Shown here piece after piece: positions 2,170-25,376 of a stretch of 64,000 nt of DNA (the stretch's first letter is position 1; each line of letters opens with the position of its first letter). The notes below the pieces were generated by a model. It had not been told where the DNA came from. It worked only from the letters and a program-made list of their open reading frames with translations, and searched no databases. The DNA is taken from contig OZ220691.1 of assembly GCA_965116475.1 (NCBI GenBank), positions 416,001-480,000 of the forward strand, in the 5' to 3' direction. The translations under genes and the position numbers were made by a program. This stretch comes from Gemmatimonadota bacterium (GTDB lineage: Bacteria > Gemmatimonadota > Gemmatimonadetes > Palauibacterales > Palauibacteraceae).

Positions 2170-4535
2170 TGGCACCGAAGACTTCCGCCGACATCTGCGG
2201 CATGGGGCACTCCATGAAGCGCAAGGAGGATCCGCGCTTCCTGCAGGGCAAAGGCAACTACATCGACGACATCGTCCTCCCCGGCATGCTGTGGCTCGAC
2301 ATCGTCCGCAGCCCGATCGCCTACGGGAAGATCAACGGCATCGACTCGAGCAAGGCGCTGGAGGTGCCCGGCGTGCTCGCCGTCCTCACCGGCAAGGACC
2401 TCGAGGCGTACAACCTGCACTGGATGCCGACGCTGATGTCGGACACGCAGATGGTGCTCCCCACGGACACCATCATGTACCAGTCGCAGGAGGTCGCCGC
2501 CGTCATCGCCACCTCGCGCTACGCCGCCGCCGACGGGGTGGCCGCGGTCGAGGTCGACTACGAGCCCATGAAGCCCGTCATCGACCCCTTCAAGGCGCTC
2601 GAGGAGGACGCGCCCGTCCTCCGCACCGACAAGGAGGGCCAGACCGACAACCGCATCTGGCACTGGGAGGCCGGCGACAAGGCGGCCACCGACAAGGTGT
2701 TCGAGGAGGCGGACGTCGTCGTGCGCGAGAGCATGCACGTGCCGCGCATCCACGTGGCCTCCATCGAGACGTGCGGCTGCGTGGCCGACTTCAACGCCGT
2801 CGAGGGCCACCTCACCGTCTACATGACGAGCCAGGCCCCCCACGCGATCCGCACCGTGCTCGCGCTGGTGGCCGGACACGTCGGGCTCTCCGAGGAGAAG
2901 ATCCGCGTCGTGTCGCCCGACATCGGGGGCGGCTTCGGCGGCAAGGTGCCGGTCTACCCCGGCTACGTGATCGCGATCGCGGCCTCCGTCGTGCTGGGCA
3001 AGCCGGTCAAGTGGATCGAGGACCGGATGGAGAACCTCCAGGCCGACTCCTTCGCGCGCGACTACCACATGGACGCCGAACTCGCCGCCGACGCCGACGG
3101 GAAGATCCGCGGGCTCCGCATCAAGACGCTCGCGGACCACGGCTACTCCGACGCCCAGGCCGCGCCCTCCAAGTTCCCCGCCGGGCTCTTCTCCATCTGC
3201 ACCGGCTCGTACGACATGGAGCAGGCCTACGCCGAGGTGGACGCCGTCTACACGAACAAGCCGCCCGGCGGCGTCGCCTACCGCTGCTCCTTCCGCGTGA
3301 CCGAGGCCGTGCACTGCATGGAGCGCGTCGTCGACACGCTGGCCCACAAGATCGGTAAGGATCCGGCGCAACTGCGCGAGGAGAACTTCATCCCGAAGGA
3401 GGCCTTCCCCTACCAGTCGCCCCTGGGCTGGGAGTACGACAGCGGCGATTACCAGGCCGCGATGGACAAGGCCAAGGAGATGATCGGCTACGACGACCTG
3501 CGCCGCGAGCAGGCCGAGAAGCGCGCCCGCGGCGAACTGATGGGGATCGGCGTATGCAGCTTCACCGAGGTGCTGGGCGCGGGGCCGTCCAAGGACTTCG
3601 ACATCCTCGGCATCAAGATGTTCGACTCCGCCGAGGTGCGCGTACACCCCACCGGCAAAGCGATCGCCCGCTTCGGCACCAAGTCGCAGGGCCAGGGCCA
3701 CGAGACCACCTACGCGCAGATCATCGCCGAGGAACTCGGCCTCCCCGCCGCACACGTCCAGGTCGAGGAGGGCGACACCGACACCGCCCCGTACGGCCTG
3801 GGCACCTACGCCAGCCGCTCGACCCCGACCGCCGGCGCCGCGGGCGCGATGGCCGCACGCCAGATCCGCGCCAAGGCCGCGAAGATCGCCGCCCACCTGA
3901 TGGAGGTGAGCGAGGAGGACCTCGAGTGGGAGCCCGGGAAGTTCTCCGTGAAGGGCGCCCCCGACCGGTTCGTGACGATCCAGGACTGCGCCTTCGCCGC
4001 CTACACGAACCTCCCCGAGGGAATGGAGCCGGGGATGGAGGCGACGAACTACTACGACCCGCCCAACCTCACCTTCCCCTTCGGCACGTACATCTGCGTG
4101 GTCGACATCGACCGCGGCACCGGCGAGGTGACGGTGCGCCGCTTCGTGGCCGTGGACGACTGCGGCAATATCATCAACCCCATGATCGTGCAGGGCCAGA
4201 TCCACGGCGGCCTCACCCAGGGCATCGGTCCCGCGCTGTTCGAGGAGATCCCCTACGACGAGGACGGCAACAACCTCGCCGGCTCGTTCATGGACTACCT
4301 CGTCCCCACCTCCATGGAGACCCCCGCCTGGGAGACCGGCCACACCGTCACGCCGTCACCCCACCACCCCCTCGGCGCCAAGGGCGTCGGCGAGTCCGCC
4401 ACCGTGGGCGCGCCACCGGCGATCGCGAACGCCGTCGTGGACGCGCTCGCGCACCTGGGCGTGACGCACCTCGACATCCCCATCACCCCCGACAAGGTGT
4501 GGGCGGTCCTCCACAGAAAAGGACTCACCGAGTGA
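2169..4535 (+). CDS. coxL: Form I aerobic CO dehydrogenase large (Mo-Cu) subunit
   Basis: Active-site AYRCSFR motif (3276-3296), diagnostic of form I; ATG 2169 overlaps the coxS stop, so the ORF-track extension from 1836 is not used. Confidence 0.95.
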   Translation: MAPKTSADICGMGHSMKRKEDPRFLQGKGNYIDDIVLPGMLWLDIVRSPIAYGKINGIDSSKALEVPGVLAVLTGKDLEAYNLHWMPTLMSDTQMVLPTDTIMYQSQEVAAVIATSRYAAADGVAAVEVDYEPMKPVIDPFKALEEDAPVLRTDKEGQTDNRIWHWEAGDKAATDKVFEEADVVVRESMHVPRIHVASIETCGCVADFNAVEGHLTVYMTSQAPHAIRTVLALVAGHVGLSEEKIRVVSPDIGGGFGGKVPVYPGYVIAIAASVVLGKPVKWIEDRMENLQADSFARDYHMDAELAADADGKIRGLRIKTLADHGYSDAQAAPSKFPAGLFSICTGSYDMEQAYAEVDAVYTNKPPGGVAYRCSFRVTEAVHCMERVVDTLAHKIGKDPAQLREENFIPKEAFPYQSPLGWEYDSGDYQAAMDKAKEMIGYDDLRREQAEKRARGELMGIGVCSFTEVLGAGPSKDFDILGIKMFDSAEVRVHPTGKAIARFGTKSQGQGHETTYAQIIAEELGLPAAHVQVEEGDTDTAPYGLGTYASRSTPTAGAAGAMAARQIRAKAAKIAAHLMEVSEEDLEWEPGKFSVKGAPDRFVTIQDCAFAAYTNLPEGMEPGMEATNYYDPPNLTFPFGTYICVVDIDRGTGEVTVRRFVAVDDCGNIINPMIVQGQIHGGLTQGIGPALFEEIPYDEDGNNLAGSFMDYLVPTSMETPAWETGHTVTPSPHHPLGAKGVGESATVGAPPAIANAVVDALAHLGVTHLDIPITPDKVWAVLHRKGLTE

Positions 4536-17007: not shown

Positions 17008-19173
17008 TCAGGACTCCGATCCGTAGGGAATCCGCGCCACTTCCCGGAGCATATCCACGATCTCGGCCCCGATGGCCCCGATGTCGGCTTCGATCTCCTC
17101 AAGCGGGCGGGGCGGCTTGAAGCGGTAGAAGTAGCGGTTGAAGTTGATCTCGTATCCCACGAGACCGACGTCGCCGTCGCGTCGGTCGCGCTTCGTCGTA
17201 TCGATCCAGGCGTCGTCCGCGTGCGGCTGGACCTCGCGCGCGAAGAACTCTCGCACGCTTTCCGGGACGCCGTCGTCGTCCACAGGGTCGTCACCGTCGG
17301 GCAACGGCACGCGCTCTGTGTCCCGCAGTTCCGGATCGGGCTCGGGATGGCCGTGGGCGTCGCGGCAGATCTCCGCCGTCTCGTCCCGTTCCGAGAGCGC
17401 CTTGAGGATCGCCTTCCGTACCGGAACGCGCAGGTTGATCTCCGCCTCCTCCATGGCTGCATCCAGTACGACGGCGAACGCGTCGCGATCCTTGGGGAGA
17501 TCGTCCGGCATCGCCTCAAGCGCCGTCTTGATCGCTGCCTGTAGCGCCCGGCCTTCCTCCTGCTCGCGCTCCCCGGCCTCACCCCGTTTCCGCGACTTGG
17601 CCAGGTTCGCGAACGCCGTCTGCTCCTCCAGACGTGCCATGCGCTCCTCGCTCGCCTGGAAGTTGAGTCGCAGTGGACGTTCCACCGTGATCTTCCGGAA
17701 CCCGAACCGGGTCGTGGGGAATACGCGGCTGACCGGCACGTCCTCCTCACCGTCGGCGCCGACCACGGGCCGGGTCTCGCCATCCCGGAAGCCGCGGACG
17801 AGCGCCAGAATGTCCGCCGCCTTCTCCGCTGGAATGTCGCGCCGCTTGTCCCCGAGGCTCTTCTTGCGCGGCGTCCAGAAGGAGGTGGCGTCGATGAGTT
17901 GGACCTTGCCCGCCCGCCCCGGCGCCTTGCGGTTCGTGAGGAGCCAGATGTAGGTGCCGATGCCGGTGTTGTAGAAGAGCTGTTCCGGGAGCGCGATCAG
18001 CGCCTCAAGCAGGTCGTTCTCCAGGATGTGGCGGCGAATCTCGCTCTCGCCGCTCCCCGCGTCGCCGGTGAAGAGCGGCGATCCGTTCATGATGATCGCG
18101 ATGCGCGTGCCACCCTCCTCCGGCGTCCTCGCGCGCGCGAGCATATGAAGAAGGAAGAGCGTCTGCCCGTCGCTGATCCTCGGGAGGCCGGGACCGAAGC
18201 GGCCGGCCGCCCCGCGCTCGTGCTCGGCCTTGACCGCGTCCTTGTCCCGTTTCCAGTCCTTCCCGTACGGCGGGTTGGCGATCAGGTAGTCGAAGTGTTT
18301 GTCCGCGTGCCGGTCGTTGGAGAGGACGCTCCCGAACGCGATGTTCCTTGCGTCATGTCCCTTCGGATCCTTCATGAAGAAGTCCGACTTCGACACGGCC
18401 CACGTCTCGGGGTTCACCTCCTGCCCGAACAGGTGGACCTCCGCGTCGCGGTTGATCGCGGGCCGCAGGAGTTCGCCGTCCTCTTCCCTTCCCTCGAGGA
18501 TGCGCTGCTTGGCGATCATCAGCATGCCGCCGGAGCCGCAGCAAGGGTCGTACACGCTGCGCACGGTCCCCACCCGCGAGAGTTCCTCCTCGTCGCCGGC
18601 CAGCATCAACTCGACCATGAGGTGCACCACGTCCCGCGGTGTGAAGTGCTCGCCGGGGTTCTCGTCGAGGGCCTCGTTGAACTTCCGGATCAGCTCCTCG
18701 AAGATCGTCCCCATGGTGGGGTTGTCGACGACGTCGGGATGGAGGTCGAGCGTCCCGAACCGCTCCACGACCTGGTACAGCAACTGCGACTCGTCGAGCT
18801 TGCTGATCGTGTTGTCGAAGTCGAACCGCTCGATGACCTCCCGCATCTCGTCGCTGAACCCGACGATGTAGTTGCGCAGGTTCGCGGCCAGCGCGGGCGC
18901 GTCGCCGAGAAGGCGCTCGAAGTCGTACCGGGACGTGTTGTAGAACGCGAACCCCGACGCCTTCTTTAGCTGCGCGTCCATGTCCTCAAGACCCATCCCG
19001 CGCAACTCCGCCTTCCGCGCCAGCACCTTCTCCTTCGTCGGCGCCAGCACGCAGTCGAGCCGTCGCAGGACGGTCAGCGGCAGCATCACATCCTGGTACT
19101 TCCCCCGCTTGAAGGTGTCCCGAATCAGGTTCGCGACATCCCAAATGAAGCTGACGATCTCCGTGTGGGTCAT
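17008..19173 (-). CDS. hsdM: Type I restriction-modification N6-adenine methyltransferase subunit
   Basis: IVSFIWDVANLIRD, GEHFTPRDVV, YDPCCGSGGM (motif I), NPPY (motif IV), GYEINFNRYFY; ATG 19173 preferred. Confidence 0.95.
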   Translation of the reverse strand: MTHTEIVSFIWDVANLIRDTFKRGKYQDVMLPLTVLRRLDCVLAPTKEKVLARKAELRGMGLEDMDAQLKKASGFAFYNTSRYDFERLLGDAPALAANLRNYIVGFSDEMREVIERFDFDNTISKLDESQLLYQVVERFGTLDLHPDVVDNPTMGTIFEELIRKFNEALDENPGEHFTPRDVVHLMVELMLAGDEEELSRVGTVRSVYDPCCGSGGMLMIAKQRILEGREEDGELLRPAINRDAEVHLFGQEVNPETWAVSKSDFFMKDPKGHDARNIAFGSVLSNDRHADKHFDYLIANPPYGKDWKRDKDAVKAEHERGAAGRFGPGLPRISDGQTLFLLHMLARARTPEEGGTRIAIIMNGSPLFTGDAGSGESEIRRHILENDLLEALIALPEQLFYNTGIGTYIWLLTNRKAPGRAGKVQLIDATSFWTPRKKSLGDKRRDIPAEKAADILALVRGFRDGETRPVVGADGEEDVPVSRVFPTTRFGFRKITVERPLRLNFQASEERMARLEEQTAFANLAKSRKRGEAGEREQEEGRALQAAIKTALEAMPDDLPKDRDAFAVVLDAAMEEAEINLRVPVRKAILKALSERDETAEICRDAHGHPEPDPELRDTERVPLPDGDDPVDDDGVPESVREFFAREVQPHADDAWIDTTKRDRRDGDVGLVGYEINFNRYFYRFKPPRPLEEIEADIGAIGAEIVDMLREVARIPYGSES

Positions 19174-19311
19174 AGGCTCGAATCCGGGGACGTTGGTCCG
19201 GTGCCCCCCGCGGCGATCGCGCGTCAAACACTCGTTCCGTTGAAGGTGGCCCGCCCGTTTCGTATCACTTATCGACATTTGTGTAATGCAAATCTTGTAG
19301 CACCAAAACGG

Positions 19312-20432
19312 CTACCACACAACCGTGTCGCGCTCGACGATGTCGAGAAGGGGCTCGAACGCATACAGGGCTGGCCGGCGTCCGCTTGCCTTCTCCACCA
19401 CGTCGATGACGTCGCCCTCGCTTAGCAACTTGAGCGCTCGATGGGCAGTAGCGTTCGTTACGCCCGTGTCCTCAATGAACTCGGTCGTCGTGAAGATGGG
19501 CTCGCTGAAGATCGCATCCAGGAAACGAACGGTGTACGGCGATCTCGTGAGCCCTTCCACATGGGCCTTCATGTCGTCGTATAGGCCCAGGATCTCGCGG
19601 ACCCGTTTGTATTGTCCTCGGCCTGCGCCTGGAGCGCTCGTAGGAAAAAGCAGGACCACTCCGTCCAATCGTCGTCGCGAGACACCGCTCTGAGCCGCTC
19701 GTAATACTCTGCGCGATGGGAATCCAAGTAGTAGCTGATGTAGAAGACGGGCCTGCGGATGAGGTCATGCTGCCACATGAAGAGCGGTACAAACAGTCTT
19801 CCGAGGCGCCCGTTCCCATCCTGGAACGGATGGAGAGCTTCGAACTCCGCGTGGAGGATCGCGAGCTGCACCAATTGATCGAGGGGCGAGGGATCGTGCA
19901 TGTACTTTTCCCACGCCGACATGGCATCCGGCAGCAGATTCGCCGGAGGCGGGACAAACCACGCCTCGTCGATCGTACACCCCGGCGGGCCAATCCAGTT
20001 TGGTCCCGCCCGGAACTCGCCGGGGTTCCGGTTACGGCCGCGTACGCCCGCCAGGAGTCTCTCGTGAGCCTGCCGAAGCACGCGCAAGCAAAGAGGCAGG
20101 TCGTTCAGCAACCGACTCGCGTCGTACATCGCGGTCCGGTAGTTGAGCACCTCCTCGAAATCGTACTGCCGATGCTCCGACCCCTCGCGCCTTCCCGCCC
20201 TGAACTGAAGAACCTCCTCCATCGTCGTTCGGGTGCCTTCGATCCTGTTGGAAAACACCGCTTCCTGTGTCGCCATGGGAGCGAGGAGAACATCCGGATC
20301 CAAGATCGCTGCAAGCATACCGTCGTATCTCGCAACCGCTGCAGAAGCCGGACCCAGGAGAGGGATAATCCGAGACCAGTCAAGAAGGCCGTCCGGAGGG
20401 AACTTCCCGATGTGGTATTGTACCGGACTCAA
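19312..20432 (-). pseudogene. Fic-domain protein (Fic_N + Fic + C-terminal HTH) with a single-base frameshift
   Basis: AGGAGG SD before TTG 20432; SNRIEG inhibitory motif; HPFQDGNGRLGR; frame breaks at the T run 19606-19608 and continues as RVREILGLYDDMK...HTH to 19312. Confidence 0.8.
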
Positions 20433-20572
20433 CCGGGACCTCCTACGTCTTTCTCGAGACACCCGCCGTCGCCGTCGCCCACGGCCTCTCCGGACAGATC
20501 CAAGGTAACGATATCGCGGCCGCTTCGGGAAAGCTCGCGGCCGATGTGGCCGAGGCCCGACCGACATGGAAG

Positions 20573-20601
20573 TTGCCCCTCGACGCATCCTCCGACATCT
20601 T
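20573..20601 (+). promoter_or_regulatory. Putative sigma70-type promoter TTGCCC-N17-CATCTT, 8 nt before the sORF ATG (possible leaderless transcript)
   Basis: -35-like hexamer at 20573-20578, 17-nt spacer, -10-like hexamer at 20596-20601; no SD before ATG 20610. Confidence 0.4.
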
Positions 20602-20609
20602 CTCGCGCC

Positions 20610-20738
20610 ATGATTTGCGCGCCTGACATCCGACCTCTCCGCGCCCGCGGAGCGAGCTGCGCCTGCGGCACCCCTGCCTGCGGCACCTGCGCCTGTATGT
20701 GTTCGTGTCCCCACGACGCGTGGATCCGGGTGTGTTGA
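20610..20738 (+). CDS. Cys-rich 42-aa sORF, putative attenuator leader peptide (MICAPDIRPLRARGASCACGTPACGTCACMCSCPHDAWIRVC)
   Basis: 9 of 42 codons are Cys, 7 of them within codons 17-33; followed by a terminator and then a co-oriented gene. Confidence 0.6.
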   Translation: MICAPDIRPLRARGASCACGTPACGTCACMCSCPHDAWIRVC

Positions 20739-20770
20739 TGCGCTGAGCTCCAAGCTCAAACCGTTTTTCG

Positions 20771-20805
20771 AGCCGCCCCGGTCTGCCGACCCGGGCGGCT
20801 TTTTT
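20771..20805 (+). terminator. Intrinsic terminator / attenuator hairpin upstream of the ATP-grasp gene
   Basis: AGCCGCCC-C-GGTC-TGCC-GACC-C-GGGCGGCT stem ending in a T6 run, 38 nt before ATG 20844. Confidence 0.8.
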
Positions 20806-20843
20806 CGTGCCCCGTCCAACCGGACTCAACCCGAGAGAAACCG

Positions 20844-21881
20844 ATGACTCGTCCCGTTTTACCGCAGATACATGTCCTGTACGAAAACCCGGCCTGGATT
20901 CCGCCCCTTGAGGAGGCGCTCGCGAGGGAGGGCTTCCGGGTCCGCCTCGTGCACGTGAACGAGGGGCTCGTCGATCCGTCGGCCCCTCCGCCCGAGGGCG
21001 TCTGGATCAACCGCATCAGCCCGTCGTCGCACACGCGCGGCCACGTCCACACGGTGGAACTGGCCCGGCAGTTCCTGTACTGGCTGGAGTCGCACGGCCG
21101 CCGGGTGATCAACGGGCTCGGCGCCTTCGAGCTTGAGATGAGCAAGCTCCGGCAGGATCTCGTCCTGCGGCGGCACGGGATCCGCACGCCGCGCACCGTG
21201 CTGGCCGTGGGGAGAAGGCACCTGCTCCGAGCGGCCGCCACTTTCGATGGCCCGTTCATCACGAAGCACGACCAGGGCGGCAAGGGCCTCGGGATCCGCC
21301 TCTTCCACGACGCGCGGGAACTCGAGCGGCACCTCGACGGCGACGGCTTCGACGCGGGACCCGGCGCCCGCATGATCCTCCAGCAGTACATCGACGCGCC
21401 GGAGCCGTTCATCACGCGGGTGGAGATCGTCGGCGGCCGCTTCCTGTTCGCCATGCGGAGTTCCACGGCGGACGGATTCGAACTCTGCCCCTCGGATGCG
21501 TGCAACCCGATGCCCTCCGAGGGCAACGCACCCTCCGGGAGAGACGCGCCCTCCGGGACGGACGAGGAGGCGGCGCTCGAGGAAGCGACGCTCGAGGTGT
21601 GCCCGGCCGGCCCCGGCCTCTTCAGCCCCTCGCCGGTCAGGGAGGACGACCCGCTCGTGCAACGGTACATTCGGCTCTGCAACGAGGAGCGGATCGAGAT
21701 CGCCGGCATAGAATTCGTGCGGGACGCGTGGGGCCACCGCTACACGTACGACATCAACGGCACGACGAACTACAACCAGACGCTCGGCGCCCGGATCGGC
21801 GTCGACGGCATGGGCGAGGTGGCGCGCTACGTACGCCGGACGGCGACCCCGGCCCGACGGCGCCAGCGCATCGCGAGTTGA
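20844..21881 (+). CDS. RimK/glutathione-synthetase-like ATP-grasp ligase
   Basis: NRISPSSHTRG, EMSK, KHDQGGKGLG, LQQYI, GFELCPSDAC, IEF, YDINGTTNYN motifs. Confidence 0.85.
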   Translation: MTRPVLPQIHVLYENPAWIPPLEEALAREGFRVRLVHVNEGLVDPSAPPPEGVWINRISPSSHTRGHVHTVELARQFLYWLESHGRRVINGLGAFELEMSKLRQDLVLRRHGIRTPRTVLAVGRRHLLRAAATFDGPFITKHDQGGKGLGIRLFHDARELERHLDGDGFDAGPGARMILQQYIDAPEPFITRVEIVGGRFLFAMRSSTADGFELCPSDACNPMPSEGNAPSGRDAPSGTDEEAALEEATLEVCPAGPGLFSPSPVREDDPLVQRYIRLCNEERIEIAGIEFVRDAWGHRYTYDINGTTNYNQTLGARIGVDGMGEVARYVRRTATPARRRQRIAS

Positions 21882-21895
21882 GCGGTGTCCACCGG

Positions 21896-22291
21896 TCAGA
21901 CGCCGGGCATCGCCCTGATGTCGGGACACTCCAGCAGCGACGCGTCCGCCGTGACGAGCGTGAGATCGTGTACCATGGCGGTCGCCGCGATGAAGCGATC
22001 GGCCGGGTCACCATGGTCGAGGCGGATGCTGCGGCTGCCGAACGCGACCTCGAACGTCAATGGGACTTCGTGCACCGGCCGCACGGTCAGCGCTGTCCGG
22101 ATCCAACTCCAGGGATCGGGATTGAGGAGCACGCGCCCCTTCTCGGCGAGCACCAATACCTCCCAGACGCTGACGGGCGACAGCGCGAGGGTATTCTCCG
22201 GCGCGGCCAGCGCCGAGCGGGCCCGGCCGGAGATCCGGTCGGGCTCCAGCAGGCTCCAGAGCCAGACGTGCGTATCGAGGAGCAGCTTCAC
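21896..22291 (-). CDS. vapC: PIN-domain (VapC-like) toxin, copy 1
   Basis: LLLDTHVWLW, SPVSVWE, DPADRFIAATA, LVTAD; GTG overlaps the antitoxin TGA. Confidence 0.9.
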   Translation of the reverse strand: MKLLLDTHVWLWSLLEPDRISGRARSALAAPENTLALSPVSVWEVLVLAEKGRVLLNPDPWSWIRTALTVRPVHEVPLTFEVAFGSRSIRLDHGDPADRFIAATAMVHDLTLVTADASLLECPDIRAMPGV

Positions 22292-22656
22292 CGGGTCCGG
22301 TCGTCGCCCGGATCGGCGGTCTCCGAACGCAATGCCGCCCACTCGGAGGGGTCCGCCGCCGGCGAGACGATGTCGCCGACGATCTCACCGGTGTCGCTCA
22401 TCGCCCCCATCCAGCCGCTGCCGCCGATCTGGACCTCGGCCGCATCGGTTGCGGTGCCGGAGACGTTCGGGGTCGCCGTGTAGCCGGCGGCCAGCCGGGC
22501 CCGCTCGCGCACGACGCCGAACATGGGCTGCGGGAGCGCATGGCGGCTCAGCAAGTAGCGCAATTCGCCTTCCAGGGAACGATGATTCGCCTTCGCCCGT
22601 CTCTTGAGCGCGGCGATCAGGTCGTCGTCCACGTTCCGAATCGTGAGCACTCCCAA
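22288..22656 (-). CDS. FitA-like ribbon-helix-helix antitoxin, copy 1
   Basis: LTIRNVDDD..AALKRRAKANHRSLEGELR; coupled upstream of the PIN toxin. Confidence 0.85.
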   Translation of the reverse strand: MGVLTIRNVDDDLIAALKRRAKANHRSLEGELRYLLSRHALPQPMFGVVRERARLAAGYTATPNVSGTATDAAEVQIGGSGWMGAMSDTGEIVGDIVSPAADPSEWAALRSETADPGDDRTR

Positions 22657-22819: not shown

Positions 22820-24430
22820 GTGGAGGAAACGAACCGGATGAACGGCGGGCGGCGCCGGCGGGCCACGGCGCAGGGCGGGCTGTGGAAGGGGCTGAATCCC
22901 GGGATGGCGCTGGCCGCCAAGGGGGTCGTGCTCGTCTTCGTCCTCGCCACGGTCTGGGACGTGGAGGCCGCCGGCGCCGTGTTCGGCCGCGTCCGCGCCT
23001 GGATCGAGGGCACGCTCGACTGGTTCTACGTGCTGACCGTCTGCGCCACCCTGTTCACCTGCCTGTTCCTGGTCTGCAGCCGGTTCGGCCGCATCCGGCT
23101 CGGCGACGAGGACTCCTCGCCCGAGTTCAGCCGCTTCTCCTGGCTCGCCATGCTGTTCTCGGCCGCCGTCGGGATCGGATTGCTCTTCTTCTCCATCGCC
23201 GAGCCGATCTTCTACTTCGACAACAGCCAGGCCGCGGGTTACCCCAACAACCCGATCGCCGACCTCGCGGGCGCCGCGACGCTGGACGAACGGCGGGCCA
23301 CCCACGCCCTGCGCGCCACCTACTTCCACTGGGGCCTGCACGGTTGGTCCGCGTACGTCCTGGTCGGGCTTTGCCTGGCCTACTTCGGGTTCCGCAAGAA
23401 GCTGCCGCTGACGCTGCGCTCCGCGCTGTACCCCCTCATCGGCGATCGGATCTACGGCCCGCTCGGGGACCTGGTGGACCTGCTGGCGGTGTTCGGCGGG
23501 GTGTTCGGCATCGCGACCTCCCTCGGCCTCGGGGCGAGCCAGATGGCCGCCGGCCTCAACGTGCTGTTCGGCGTCGATCCGGGTCTCCTCACGCAGGTTG
23601 CGCTCATCGCCGTCATCTCGGTGGCGGCCACGTTGTCGGTGGTATCCGGCGTGAAGCGCGGGATCCGCCGCCTGTCCGAGTGGAACATCGGCGTGAGCGT
23701 GGTCCTGCTGGGGTGCTTCCTGTTCCTGGGTCCCATCCCGTGGCTCGTCAGTTTTGTGGCCACATCCGCCGCCGAGTACCTGTGGCGCGTGCTACCCATG
23801 GGGTTCTGGATCGCCGACGATCCGGGGGAGGCCGCCTGGCAGAACGCCTGGACGATCTTCTACTGGGGCTGGTGGATTTCCTGGGCTCCCTTCGTCGGCA
23901 CGTTCATCGCCCGCATCTCGCGCGGGCGCACGCTGCGGGAGTTCATCCTCGGCGTGCTCATCGTTCCGACCGGCCTGGCGCTGGTGTGGTTCGGCATCTT
24001 CGGCGGCAACGCCATCCACCTGGAACTCACCGCCCCGGGCGGGGTCGGGACGGCGGGAATCATGGACCTGGTGCGGAGCGGGAACTACGAGGCCGCGCTC
24101 TACGCGACGATCGACCGGATGAGCGACACCGACTGGCTCGCGTGGGCCATGTCCGCCATGGCCACCCTCCTCGTGGCGACGTGGTTCGTCACATCTTCGG
24201 ACTCGGGCACCCTGGTCATCACCACCTTCCTGAGCATGGGCGAACCTCACCCGCCGCGGCGTTTCCGCATCGTGTGGGGTCTTGGCGTGGGAGCGGTGGC
24301 CGCCGTGCTGCTGCTCGCCGACGGCCTCCAGGCCCTGCAGACCGCGGCCATAGCCGCCGCCCTGCCTGTGAGCGTCGTGCTGCTGTTCATGATCGCCGGG
24401 CTGCTCCGATCCCTGGCCCGCGACCCGTAG
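22820..24430 (+). CDS. BCCT-family (betaine/choline/carnitine) transporter
   Basis: SWLAMLFSAAVGIGL, FHWGLHGW, WTIFYWGWWISWAPFVGTFIARISRGRT, TSSDSG. Confidence 0.95.
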   Translation: MEETNRMNGGRRRRATAQGGLWKGLNPGMALAAKGVVLVFVLATVWDVEAAGAVFGRVRAWIEGTLDWFYVLTVCATLFTCLFLVCSRFGRIRLGDEDSSPEFSRFSWLAMLFSAAVGIGLLFFSIAEPIFYFDNSQAAGYPNNPIADLAGAATLDERRATHALRATYFHWGLHGWSAYVLVGLCLAYFGFRKKLPLTLRSALYPLIGDRIYGPLGDLVDLLAVFGGVFGIATSLGLGASQMAAGLNVLFGVDPGLLTQVALIAVISVAATLSVVSGVKRGIRRLSEWNIGVSVVLLGCFLFLGPIPWLVSFVATSAAEYLWRVLPMGFWIADDPGEAAWQNAWTIFYWGWWISWAPFVGTFIARISRGRTLREFILGVLIVPTGLALVWFGIFGGNAIHLELTAPGGVGTAGIMDLVRSGNYEAALYATIDRMSDTDWLAWAMSAMATLLVATWFVTSSDSGTLVITTFLSMGEPHPPRRFRIVWGLGVGAVAAVLLLADGLQALQTAAIAAALPVSVVLLFMIAGLLRSLARDP

Positions 24431-24450: not shown

Positions 24451-24846
24451 TCAGGCACCGGGCAGTGCCTTGATGTCGGGGCACTCGAGCAGCGACGCGT
24501 CCGCCGTGACCAGGGTGAGATCGTGCACCATGGCGGTGGCCGCGATGAAACGATCGGCCGGATCACCGTGTCCGAGGCGGATGCTGCGGCTGCCGAACGC
24601 GACCTCGAACGTCAGCGGGATTTCGTGCATCGGCCGAACGGTCAGGGCCGTACGGGTCCAGGTCCAGGGATCGGGCTGGAGGATTACACGTCCCTTCTCG
24701 GCGAGCACCAGGGCCTCCCAGACGCTCACGGGCGACAACCCCAGGGTGTTCGCCGAGGCAGTCAGTTCGCGGCGGGCCCGGCGGGAGAGACGATCCGGAT
24801 CCAGCAGGCTCCAGAGCCAGATGTGGGTATCGAGGAGCAGCTTCAC
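24451..24846 (-). CDS. vapC: PIN-domain (VapC-like) toxin, copy 2
   Basis: Close paralogue of 21896-22291, same length and motifs. Confidence 0.9.
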   Translation of the reverse strand: MKLLLDTHIWLWSLLDPDRLSRRARRELTASANTLGLSPVSVWEALVLAEKGRVILQPDPWTWTRTALTVRPMHEIPLTFEVAFGSRSIRLGHGDPADRFIAATAMVHDLTLVTADASLLECPDIKALPGA

Positions 24847-25211
24847 CGCGTGCGACCGTCGCTCGGATCGACGGCCTCCGGGCGAAGTGCCGTCCACTCG
24901 GAGGGATCGACCGCCGGAGAGACGATGTCGCCGACGATCTCACCCACGTCGCTCATGGCTCCCAGCCACGTTCCGCCGCCGGTCCGGGGATCCGCCGCCT
25001 GGGGGGCGGTGTTCGGGTCGTTCGGCGTCACCTCGTAACCAGCGGCCATCCGGGCACGCTCGCGCACGACGCCGAGCGTGGGCTTCGGGACCGCGTGGCA
25101 GGCAAGCAGGTGGCGCAGTTCGCCCTCCAGAGAACGATGGTTGGCCTTCGCCCGCCTCTTGAGCGCGGCGATCACGTCGTCGTCCACGTTCCGAATCGTG
25201 AGTACCCCCAC
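24843..25211 (-). CDS. FitA-like ribbon-helix-helix antitoxin, copy 2
   Basis: Close paralogue of 22288-22656; GTG 25211 matches the copy 1 start. Confidence 0.85.
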   Translation of the reverse strand: MGVLTIRNVDDDVIAALKRRAKANHRSLEGELRHLLACHAVPKPTLGVVRERARMAAGYEVTPNDPNTAPQAADPRTGGGTWLGAMSDVGEIVGDIVSPAVDPSEWTALRPEAVDPSDGRTR

Positions 25212-25376
25212 CTGTGCACCTCCGGCGTCAACTTCTCCATGAAGGCGTAATGTATGGAAATCGGCTTCATTATGACAGCGCACGCCTCATCGCCAGAGAC
25301 GGGACTCTGCAACCTCCCCCGCTCCTCCTGTCCTCACGCCATCCCCCGACGTACGATCCGTTCGATAGGCTCGCAG

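Follow-up and report, generated by a model that had tools for sequence, protein, structure and literature searches.

A candidate cysteine-codon transcription attenuator upstream of an ATP-grasp ligase gene in Gemmatimonadota and other bacteria

This study was concerned with a putative transcription attenuator which lies upstream of a gene for an ATP-grasp ligase in a Gemmatimonadota bacterium (GenBank assembly GCA_965116475.1) and which is formed by a cysteine-rich small open reading frame (sORF) and an intrinsic terminator. The window, which is the whole stretch of DNA that was analysed, comprises 64,000 nucleotides of contig OZ220691.1 (positions 416,001 to 480,000 of the forward strand), and positions are given in window coordinates unless a locus number precedes them. 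The genome is a single contig of 3.62 Mb with 69% G+C, and the names given to near-identical proteins and loci assign it to 'Candidatus Palauibacter'. The features of the locus are collected in Table 1. The sORF encodes MICAPDIRPLRARGASCACGTPACGTCACMCSCPHDAWIRVC and ends with a UGA stop codon at 20736. Its TGC codons start at 20616, 20658, 20664, 20679 and 20688, and its TGT codons start at 20694, 20700, 20706 and 20733. The eight nucleotides between the CATCTT hexamer and the ATG of the sORF contain no purine-rich Shine-Dalgarno sequence. Further downstream, the terminator has a stem of 8+4 pairs (-24.3 kcal/mol), and its T6 tract is separated by 38 nt from the ATG of the ATP-grasp gene at 20844. 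The sequence CCGGGT near the end of the sORF (20726-20731) is complementary to ACCCGG within the terminator (20789-20794), and the whole leader folds with -98.1 kcal/mol, at z = -3.39 compared with shuffled sequences. The first-pass annotation of this DNA had described the ORF, its Cys codons, the two hexamers, the hairpins, their spacing and this complementarity, and all of these statements hold on rereading. Its central proposal, that a leaderless Cys-rich sORF and a terminator gate the ATP-grasp gene, which would be induced when cysteine is limiting, fits each of the comparative tests of conservation, codon bias, promoter geometry and covariation reported here.

Table 1. Features of the putative attenuator and of the gene it precedes (window coordinates)
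Feature	Position	Strand	Remarks
sORF promoter, -35-like hexamer TTGCCC	20573..20578	+	From reading of the sequence; the block conserved in the same genus starts here
-10-like hexamer CATCTT	20596..20601	+	17 nt after TTGCCC; 8 nt 5' of the ATG
Leader ORF (sORF)	20610..20738	+	42 codons, 9 Cys, no Shine-Dalgarno sequence
Candidate region 1, ACAUCCG	20626..20632	+	Can pair with 20727-20733; tentative
Cluster of seven sensing Cys codons (proposed)	20658..20708	+	Four TGC, then three TGT
Region 2, sORF tail (codons W-I-R-V-C), putative antiterminator 5' strand	20720..20733	+	Pairs with 20774-20786
Small hairpin TGAGCT-CCA-AGCTCA	20744..20758	+	Inside the antiterminator; only partly conserved within the genus
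Intrinsic terminator	20771..20805	+	Regions 3 and 4 form the stem 20771-20800; antiterminator region 3 is 20774-20786; U6 at 20800-20805
ATP-grasp ligase gene	20844..21881	+	345 aa; highly conserved, uncharacterised family; Pfam RimK match

The sORF accompanies the ligase gene in the same genus and well beyond it. Of 35 other genomes of the genus, 19 proved to encode the ligase, and together with the window they gave 20 loci with a gene start. All 20 of these loci have a Cys-rich, in-frame ORF upstream that ends ...CxCxC..AWIRVC before the stop, and this ORF occurs in five in-frame lengths (32, 34, 37, 40 and 42 codons). For a wider comparison, one genome per species was scanned, which yielded 283 relatives; 80 loci were kept, and 79 of these had usable upstream DNA. 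The 80 loci represent Gemmatimonadota (Palauibacter and Longimicrobiales), Myxococcota and metagenome-assembled genomes (MAGs) labelled as various Proteobacteria. The upstream DNA of these homologous ATP-grasp genes was examined for both parts of the element. A cluster of at least four Cys in eight codons, on the sense strand and at most 250 nt upstream of the ligase, is present in 54 of the 79 loci. As a background, 38 such clusters were counted in 980,368 strand-nucleotides from the rest of the same loci, which corresponds to 0.0097 per 250 nt. This excess, together with the scarcity of Cys-dense windows over the whole genome described below, shows that the sORF is more than a chance occurrence. 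When the threshold is loosened to three Cys in eight codons, 70 of the 79 loci qualify, a few of which may do so by chance, and all counts over 70 loci given below refer to this loosely defined set.

The sORF was also placed on a quick maximum-likelihood tree of the ligase, built from 79 loci and the window; one locus (L107) was dropped for an N in the gene, and one other (L095) has no upstream DNA. The sORF occurs on both sides of the deepest split of this tree, in 46 of the 48 Gemmatimonadota rows and in 24 of the 32 rows of the other clade. The suggestion in the first-pass annotation that such a leader exists in a new lineage, here one outside the Actinobacteria, is supported, and the sORF is kept with the ligase gene across phyla. 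Distant leaders have little in common beyond the Cys run and a short tail, for example NNCTCCCCCCCC and CCCMCCCACCTCCCVCS, and Cys codons are the only codons common to all leaders. Because the flanking genes differ among 18 diverse loci, the sORF is the only constant companion of the ligase.

Several groups of loci in the wider set showed variations on this arrangement. In a Longimicrobiales clade (L054, L057, L061-L064, L067, L071, L088, L100 and L110) the sORF is located directly after a conserved upstream gene, the product of which ends ...DNAPGTGVIVYRFPE..., and no promoter-like site precedes the sORF. Two relatives of the clade, L059 and L074, have the same upstream gene before the ligase but no Cys sORF between them, a state that looks like loss of the leader. 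Three loci (L092, L096 and L097) have no Cys run and carry short ORFs that end ...HEARLI, ...HERRFI and ...NESPFI, about 60-110 nt 5' of the ligase, and these may represent a different leader. In L088 (about 3735-4400), and also in L100 and L110, the reading frame of the ligase is lost past about residue 274, where it gives way to unrelated sequence, which is an insertion or truncation of the ligase gene in these MAGs. A match of model R1 at L088:4320-4402 lies inside the insertion that interrupts the ligase gene of that locus and was rejected as noise. In L002, L012 and L013 a conserved stretch is present about 250-400 nt 5' of the ligase start, upstream of the promoter, with one frame reading ..WTCCCGCRRG.., and neither a tRNA gene nor an Rfam family was found in it. 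No tRNA genes adjoin the module in 12 loci.

The pattern of substitution in the sORF was used to distinguish selection on the peptide from selection on the RNA. Among 21 Gemmatimonadota leaders, the summed diversity at codon positions 1, 2 and 3 of the first 17 codons was 2.62, 1.95 and 2.34, which is not the pattern of protein-coding selection. In the 20 same-genus loci, third-position identity was 91.4% in the last 19 codons of the sORF compared with 80.5% in the ligase gene. In one clade a 1-nt insertion in the tail causes the conserved block GGGUGUG..GAUGCGCUGAG to be read in another frame while its nucleotides are unchanged, and the sORF then ends at a second UGA (..MR). The C-terminal residue also varies over the 70 loci (Cys in 40, Arg in 13, Ser in 4, Gly in 4, Leu in 3, Val in 2, Ala in 2, His in 1 and Ile in 1), and the peptide matches no Pfam or NCBIfam family. 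Because of the codon-position pattern, the third-position identity, the frame change and the variable C-termini, selection appears to act on the reading frame and the Cys codons and not on the peptide itself.

The choice of Cys codon is biased in the opposite direction to that of the genome. TGT makes up 255 of 399 Cys codons (64%) in the leader tails, compared with 21 of 254 (8%) over codons 1-300 of the ligase genes at the same loci and 743 of 4830 (15%) in the long ORFs of the window genome. A rare and slowly read Cys codon is what a stalling sensor would favour, and a peptide product alone would not need it.

The pattern TTGNNN-N16-18-NANNNT-N5-9-ATG, as found in the window, precedes the in-frame ATG of the sORF in 43 of the 70 loci and does so across phyla. 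As a control, the remaining ATGs of these loci were scanned, and 49 of 10,757 (0.46%) showed the pattern. This geometry fits a transcript that would start at or within a few bases of the AUG, although it is not proof of one. In a sponge metatranscriptome run (X1), available as contigs only, the contigs cover about 20590-22000, and one contig of 129 nt spans 20719-20847, across the terminator; the absence of cover at 20300-20584 in this run is not evidence.

The terminator is conserved. Among 34 aligned leaders, pairing is kept in 99.8% of 407 cells, two pairs change on both sides, and the covariation score was reached by none of 500 shuffles. A hairpin followed by at least four U's is present between the sORF and the ligase in 50 of the 70 loci, and the U run begins 47-65 nt after the sORF stop. 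When the RNA is folded as it would be before the 3' arm of the terminator exists, 20720-20726 and 20728-20732 pair with 20780-20786 and 20774-20778, respectively. The partner of the sORF tail in this antiterminator is the 5' arm and loop of the terminator, and the structure has -30.1 kcal/mol. The first-pass annotation had proposed a different antiterminator, in which 20726-20731 pairs with the 3' arm at 20789-20794. That pairing reaches -24.4 kcal/mol and is weaker than pairing of the tail with 20774-20786; in addition, only the pairing with the 5' arm and loop is conserved and covaries, and the 3'-arm version was abandoned.

Nine core pairs of the antiterminator are kept in essentially all of the 34 Gemmatimonadota rows. 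A more diverse set of 19 leaders, 14 of them from the non-Gemmatimonadota clade, was aligned with plain MAFFT. The helix between the tail and the C-rich strand is the only structure that RNAalifold predicts on these 19 leaders. In this set, 89.5% of 152 cells are paired and four of the eight pairs (9 cells) change on both sides, and slid controls of the same helix were 40-59% paired. The covariation score was 0.300, compared with 0.204 +/- 0.030 for shuffles, and was reached by 1 of 500 of them; two count-type measures were reached by 8 of 500 and 2 of 500. Related sequences can beat shuffles without structure, and the count-type measures are less prone to this. An alignment derived from a covariance model (A3) contained spurious minus-strand rows and was left out of the pair counts.

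A third pairing was considered for the 5' end of the leader. Region 1 pairs in the minimum free energy fold, and in one alignment (A5) 94.4% of 161 cells are paired and two pairs change on both sides. RNAalifold gave a weak consensus (-7.87 kcal/mol) for the 5' part of 23 Gemmatimonadota leaders, with no long-range helix, and did not predict region 1. The pairing of region 1 with the sORF tail is tentative.

Taken together, the element is likely to be a transcription attenuator that is ribosome-mediated and depends on Cys codons, is switched on when Cys-tRNA is low and controls the ATP-grasp ligase. The parts expected of an attenuator are present: clustered codons of one amino acid in a short leader ORF whose translation is predicted, a terminator before the structural gene, and an alternative helix that uses the 5' arm of this terminator. 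The stop codon is also appropriately placed, as the UGA at 20736 begins 3 nt after the 20720-20733 strand, while the last clustered Cys codon starts at 20706. In the proposed mechanism, transcription would begin at, or a few bases from, the AUG of the sORF and produce a leaderless mRNA. When Cys-tRNA is plentiful, the first ribosome would reach the UGA and mask the tail (20720-20733). With the tail masked, the terminator would fold and RNA polymerase would halt before it reaches the ATP-grasp gene. When Cys-tRNA is scarce, the ribosome would stall in the cluster of Cys codons, several of which are the rare UGU, and the tail would stay free. The free tail would then capture the 5' arm and loop of the terminator (20774-20786) before the 3' arm is made, which would allow read-through and production of the ligase. 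Without any translation, region 1 may hold the tail, and termination would be the default.

The spacing of the leader agrees with these steps. A ribosome is taken to cover about 12 nt past the start of the codon in its A site. The tail helix begins at 20720, 14 nt past the start of the last codon of the Cys cluster at 20706, and over the 70 loci the median distance from the end of the Cys cluster to the stop is 7 codons. Because of this footprint, a ribosome that waits on the codons from 20658 to 20706 would leave 20720 and onward free. By this geometry, low Cys-tRNA would therefore lead to antitermination with the ligase on, and high Cys-tRNA to termination.

The ligase itself appears from its sequence to be an ATP-grasp protein of the RimK/LysX superfamily and the equivalog of neither. 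It passes the Pfam RimK cut-off (27.5 bits compared with 21), fails that of NCBIfam rimK_fam (52.6 compared with 143.4) and scores far below the cut-off of NCBIfam LysX. A homologue search gave 7890 of 8000 scored candidates at E<=1e-3, with identities of 61-97% among the best 120 listed. The family is about 60% identical across phyla, and its invariant motifs include NRISPSSHTRGH, ITKH.QGGKGLGI, GFELCPSD.C and YTYDINGTTNY. The best matches among sequences of solved structures were RimK (5zct, E 2e-5) and LysX (3vpd, E 8.7e-5), over residues of about 80-211 only. The nearest folds of a structure model were LysX/ArgX, RimK and the graspetide ligase PsnB; this model is poor, with a mean predicted local distance difference test (pLDDT) score of 62.3, and the order of the fold matches carries little weight. 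The ATP-grasp fold is shared with RimK, LysX and ArgX, whereas the ligase family has its own invariant motifs, and no S6-type or LysW-type partner is evident for it.

A search of plasmid records with tblastn identified homologues in cultured Bacillota, with 36-40% identity to the window protein and with the family motifs present. In Bacillus sp. N5-665, an S-adenosylmethionine (SAM) riboswitch (100.5 bits, cut-off 44.4) precedes a gene for an LLM-class monooxygenase, and this gene overlaps the start of the ligase homologue. The monooxygenase is closest to the dimethylsulfone monooxygenase SfnG and the alkanesulfonate monooxygenase SsuD, below the equivalog cut-offs of both. The predicted riboswitch and gene pair would connect the family with the metabolism of sulfur amino acids, and the polarity would match that of the Cys leader, with expression when such amino acids run low. 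A link of the ligase family to sulfur metabolism had been suggested at first pass and gains independent support from this Bacillus homologue. A plasmid of Pediococcus acidilactici carries a T-box leader (L115, 801-1029) with a score of 69.7 bits (E 3.6e-15), which falls short of the Rfam cut-off of 93. It is followed by the genes of a thioredoxin-domain protein, a GltP/DctA-like symporter and the ligase homologue. A Cys-specific T-box was considered here and rejected; the specifier aligns as UUA (Leu) and the bulge reads UGGU. As aligned, this leader would fit sensing of tRNA charging. A homologue in B. mycoides follows an insertion sequence element and has no leader. In the Bacillota loci under S-box or T-box control, the same ligase family stands behind an RNA leader, and the sensors differ from the Cys sORF.

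Two genes of cysteine synthesis were sought in the genome of the window, which is 96% complete. No match over the curated cut-off was obtained for cysK (best 254.7 bits compared with 350.95) or cysE (best 21.2 compared with 210.65), and these two queries did not reveal the classical O-acetylserine pathway.

Several observations weigh against a cysteine attenuator at this locus or against parts of the proposed mechanism. No Cys-rich sORF is present in 9 of the 79 loci even at the loose threshold, and 20 of the 70 loci have no U-run terminator. In the window the Cys codons alternate with others (CACMCSC) and form no run. A ribosome stalled at the last Cys codon (20733) would mask the tail, and this codon cannot help sensing; it may serve RNA pairing. 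A strict sigma-70 scan gave no promoter here because CATCTT fits TATAAT at only three of six positions. Two metatranscriptome contigs of relatives reach 196-255 nt upstream of 20590 and 20596; these may be DNA carry-over, and contigs cannot show start, end or strand. In this genome no other gene has such a leader, which is unusual for an amino-acid regulon. A six-frame scan found only 44 windows with at least five Cys in 10 codons, mostly in alternative frames of genes, and of the 12 looked at closely none was leader-like. In addition, a covariance model search of the genome matched only the window's copy, and the next best hit had an E of 0.37.

The RNA evidence has similar counterpoints. At equilibrium the terminator state is favoured (-37.0 kcal/mol compared with -30.1 for the antiterminator), which means that the switch has to act kinetically, like those of classical attenuators. 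The antiterminator is almost without covariation when the Gemmatimonadota leaders are taken by themselves. The energy of the duplex between the tail and downstream sequence did not discriminate real from shuffled tails (median z -0.85, with z<-2 in 17 of 70 loci), nor did a comparison of matched and mismatched pairs of tail and downstream sequence (median ranks 0.19 and 0.32), because all leaders share a G-rich/C-rich core. Lastly, the Pediococcus T-box, with its Leu-like specifier, counts against a strictly Cys-specific role for the whole family, and a role of the ligase in sulfur or cysteine supply is inferred.

In the main rival explanation, the peptide of the sORF serves the ATP-grasp enzyme as substrate or partner, either as a ligated or cross-linked ribosomal peptide or as a C-terminally modified carrier as in the pairs LysW/LysX and S6/RimK; the terminator would then only set a high ratio of peptide to enzyme mRNA. 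The constant association of sORF and ligase across phyla would be expected of such a pair, and the nearest folds of the low-scoring ligase model belong to enzymes whose substrates are peptides or small proteins modified at the C-terminus (LysX/ArgX on LysW, RimK on S6, and PsnB). Genes for precursors of ribosomally synthesized and post-translationally modified peptides are also often followed by leaky terminators. However, graspetide precursors are conserved as amino-acid sequences and have Ser/Thr/Lys and Asp/Glu in the core. The sORF has no such codon-position pattern, its third positions are more conserved than those of the enzyme gene, and 46 of the 70 tails contain no Asp or Glu in their last 12 residues. 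The change of frame in one clade, the variable C-terminal residue and a Cys codon choice opposed to genome bias also argue against a selected peptide, and beyond Gemmatimonadota nothing is shared except the Cys run and the RNA helix. A substrate peptide, which was one of two alternatives named at first pass, is thus disfavoured, and we consider it unlikely. The other alternative was a metallothionein-like peptide, metal- or redox-active and free-standing, with a promoter and terminator of its own and merely located beside the ligase gene. The CxCxCxC and poly-Cys patterns do resemble metal-binding peptides, and the sORF has its own promoter-like site and terminator, but the 38 nt after the terminator leave no room for a separate ligase promoter and none was predicted there. 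The strict linkage to the ligase despite varying neighbours, the conservation at the RNA level, the covarying complementarity of the tail to a terminator arm and the absence of a Pfam or NCBIfam match make this explanation very improbable.

A further possibility keeps the ribosome-dependent switch and changes its signal. It would report not cysteine supply as such but damage or cleavage of tRNA-Cys, oxidative loss of thiols or a general slowing of translation, and beyond Gemmatimonadota it may act on translation or via Rho instead of an intrinsic terminator. Where the U run is missing, the sORF is followed by hairpins without a U tract, which is consistent with such a mode, and the Pediococcus homologue answers to another tRNA. 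The main text of a study of mycobacterial Cys sORFs describes them as acting on translation (10.1101/834739), and in the abstract of PMC13096801 cleavage of tRNA-Cys by a VapC toxin stalls ribosomes of M. tuberculosis at Cys codons. Against this, a canonical terminator is found at a constant distance in the window and in 49 further loci, no codons other than those for Cys are shared by all leaders, and vapBC genes are not conserved neighbours of the ligase. A signal other than cysteine supply therefore seems improbable to us, and it overlaps with transcription attenuation at Cys codons and does not replace it.

Leader-peptide attenuation is textbook knowledge for Trp, His, Leu, Thr, Ile/Val and Phe. 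The Cys-codon attenuator proposed here shares with the trp and his types the mutually exclusive antiterminator and terminator hairpins and the U tract before the structural gene. It also has the short leader ORF, rich in the sensed codons, with its stop just after the antiterminator strand (such classical systems are described in part in the introduction of 10.1101/834739). The differences are the Cys codons, an apparently leaderless mRNA, a single ATP-grasp gene in place of a biosynthetic operon, and the hosts, which are Gemmatimonadota, Myxococcota and proteobacterial MAGs.

Another close system is mycobacterial. In M. smegmatis, leaderless sORFs with polycysteine tracts were shown to respond to cysteine by attenuation at the level of translation, in which a sequestered ribosome-binding site is released (Canestrari et al., bioRxiv 10.1101/834739), and the main text of that report calls attenuation for cysteine mediated by upstream ORFs previously undescribed. 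The first-pass annotation had regarded the window locus as an extension of this system to a new lineage. The part of this view that concerns the leader stands. In both cases an sORF, here of predicted leaderless type, lies upstream of the regulated gene with its Cys codons near the 3' end, and the proposed signal is ribosome pausing at low Cys-tRNA; positions other than Cys may be constrained as nucleotides, as the main text of 10.1101/834739 also considers for mycobacteria. The part that concerns mechanism does not carry over. The mycobacterial sORFs, as the main text describes them, are translational, with a duplex that sequesters the ribosome-binding site and no terminator, whereas an intrinsic terminator and an antiterminator are found here and the Cys tract is not the pairing strand. 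In addition, they have consecutive Cys codons at the 3' end and targets annotated in cysteine metabolism, whereas the window has alternating Cys codons and an ATP-grasp target; consecutive runs do occur in relatives such as L078 and L108. The terms "ATP-grasp", "ligase" and "RimK" have 0 occurrences in the main text of 10.1101/834739; Table 1 and the supplements of that report fall outside this count, and an ATP-grasp target is possible there.

Cys leader ORFs were also predicted before actinobacterial cys and cbs operons by Seliverstov et al. in 2005 (PMC1262725). These are likewise short ORFs with Cys runs near the stop, located upstream of the regulated gene. The leaders described there differ in having no conserved terminator, with Rho suggested in its place, in being actinobacterial only and in preceding cysteine synthesis genes. 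No Rfam family reached its gathering score in 20300-21000 (best 20.2 bits compared with 50) or in five related loci. A literature search found neither a terminator-based Cys attenuator nor a Cys leader before an ATP-grasp gene.

The genes around the element in the window were also recorded. On the opposite strand, 5' of the leader, is a Fic/DOC gene (19569-~20438, minus strand) with Pfam Fic_N and Fic domains, and beyond it a 756-aa ORF (17008-19278, minus strand) contains NPPYGK and by eye resembles a type I restriction-modification methylase. On the other side are two similar pairs of vapC (PIN, 148 aa) and a FitA-like antitoxin gene, at 21896-22656 and 24451-25283 (both minus strand), with a BCCT transporter gene (22820-24430) between them. 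The first of these pairs is convergent with the ATP-grasp gene, and neither pair is a conserved neighbour of the ligase elsewhere. Because the flanks vary among genomes of the genus, the unit of promoter, sORF, terminator and ligase behaves like a self-contained module.

For cysteine, only a translational form of leader-ORF attenuation, in mycobacteria, has been shown so far, and the leader described here has the parts of the full classical design, namely leader ORF, antiterminator and terminator. This Cys-codon design is conserved from Gemmatimonadota to Myxococcota and proteobacterial MAGs and would fill a gap in the repertoire of attenuators. A bolder reading, which we offer as possible rather than probable, is that this is the first terminator-based cysteine attenuator, that it is ancient and spread over at least three phyla, that it forms a one-gene cysteine-starvation regulon, and that this gene encodes a missing enzyme in the acquisition of sulfur or cysteine. 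As pure speculation, the ligase might prepare an organosulfur compound for a desulfonating monooxygenase of the SsuD/SfnG type, as the Bacillus gene pair hints. The leader would serve as a functional label, which marks an ATP-grasp family as wanted when Cys-tRNA is scarce, and the SAM riboswitch of Bacillus sp. N5-665 points in the same direction. The family may give a testable entry to a step of sulfur metabolism, and the cultured Bacillota that carry homologues could serve for genetics.

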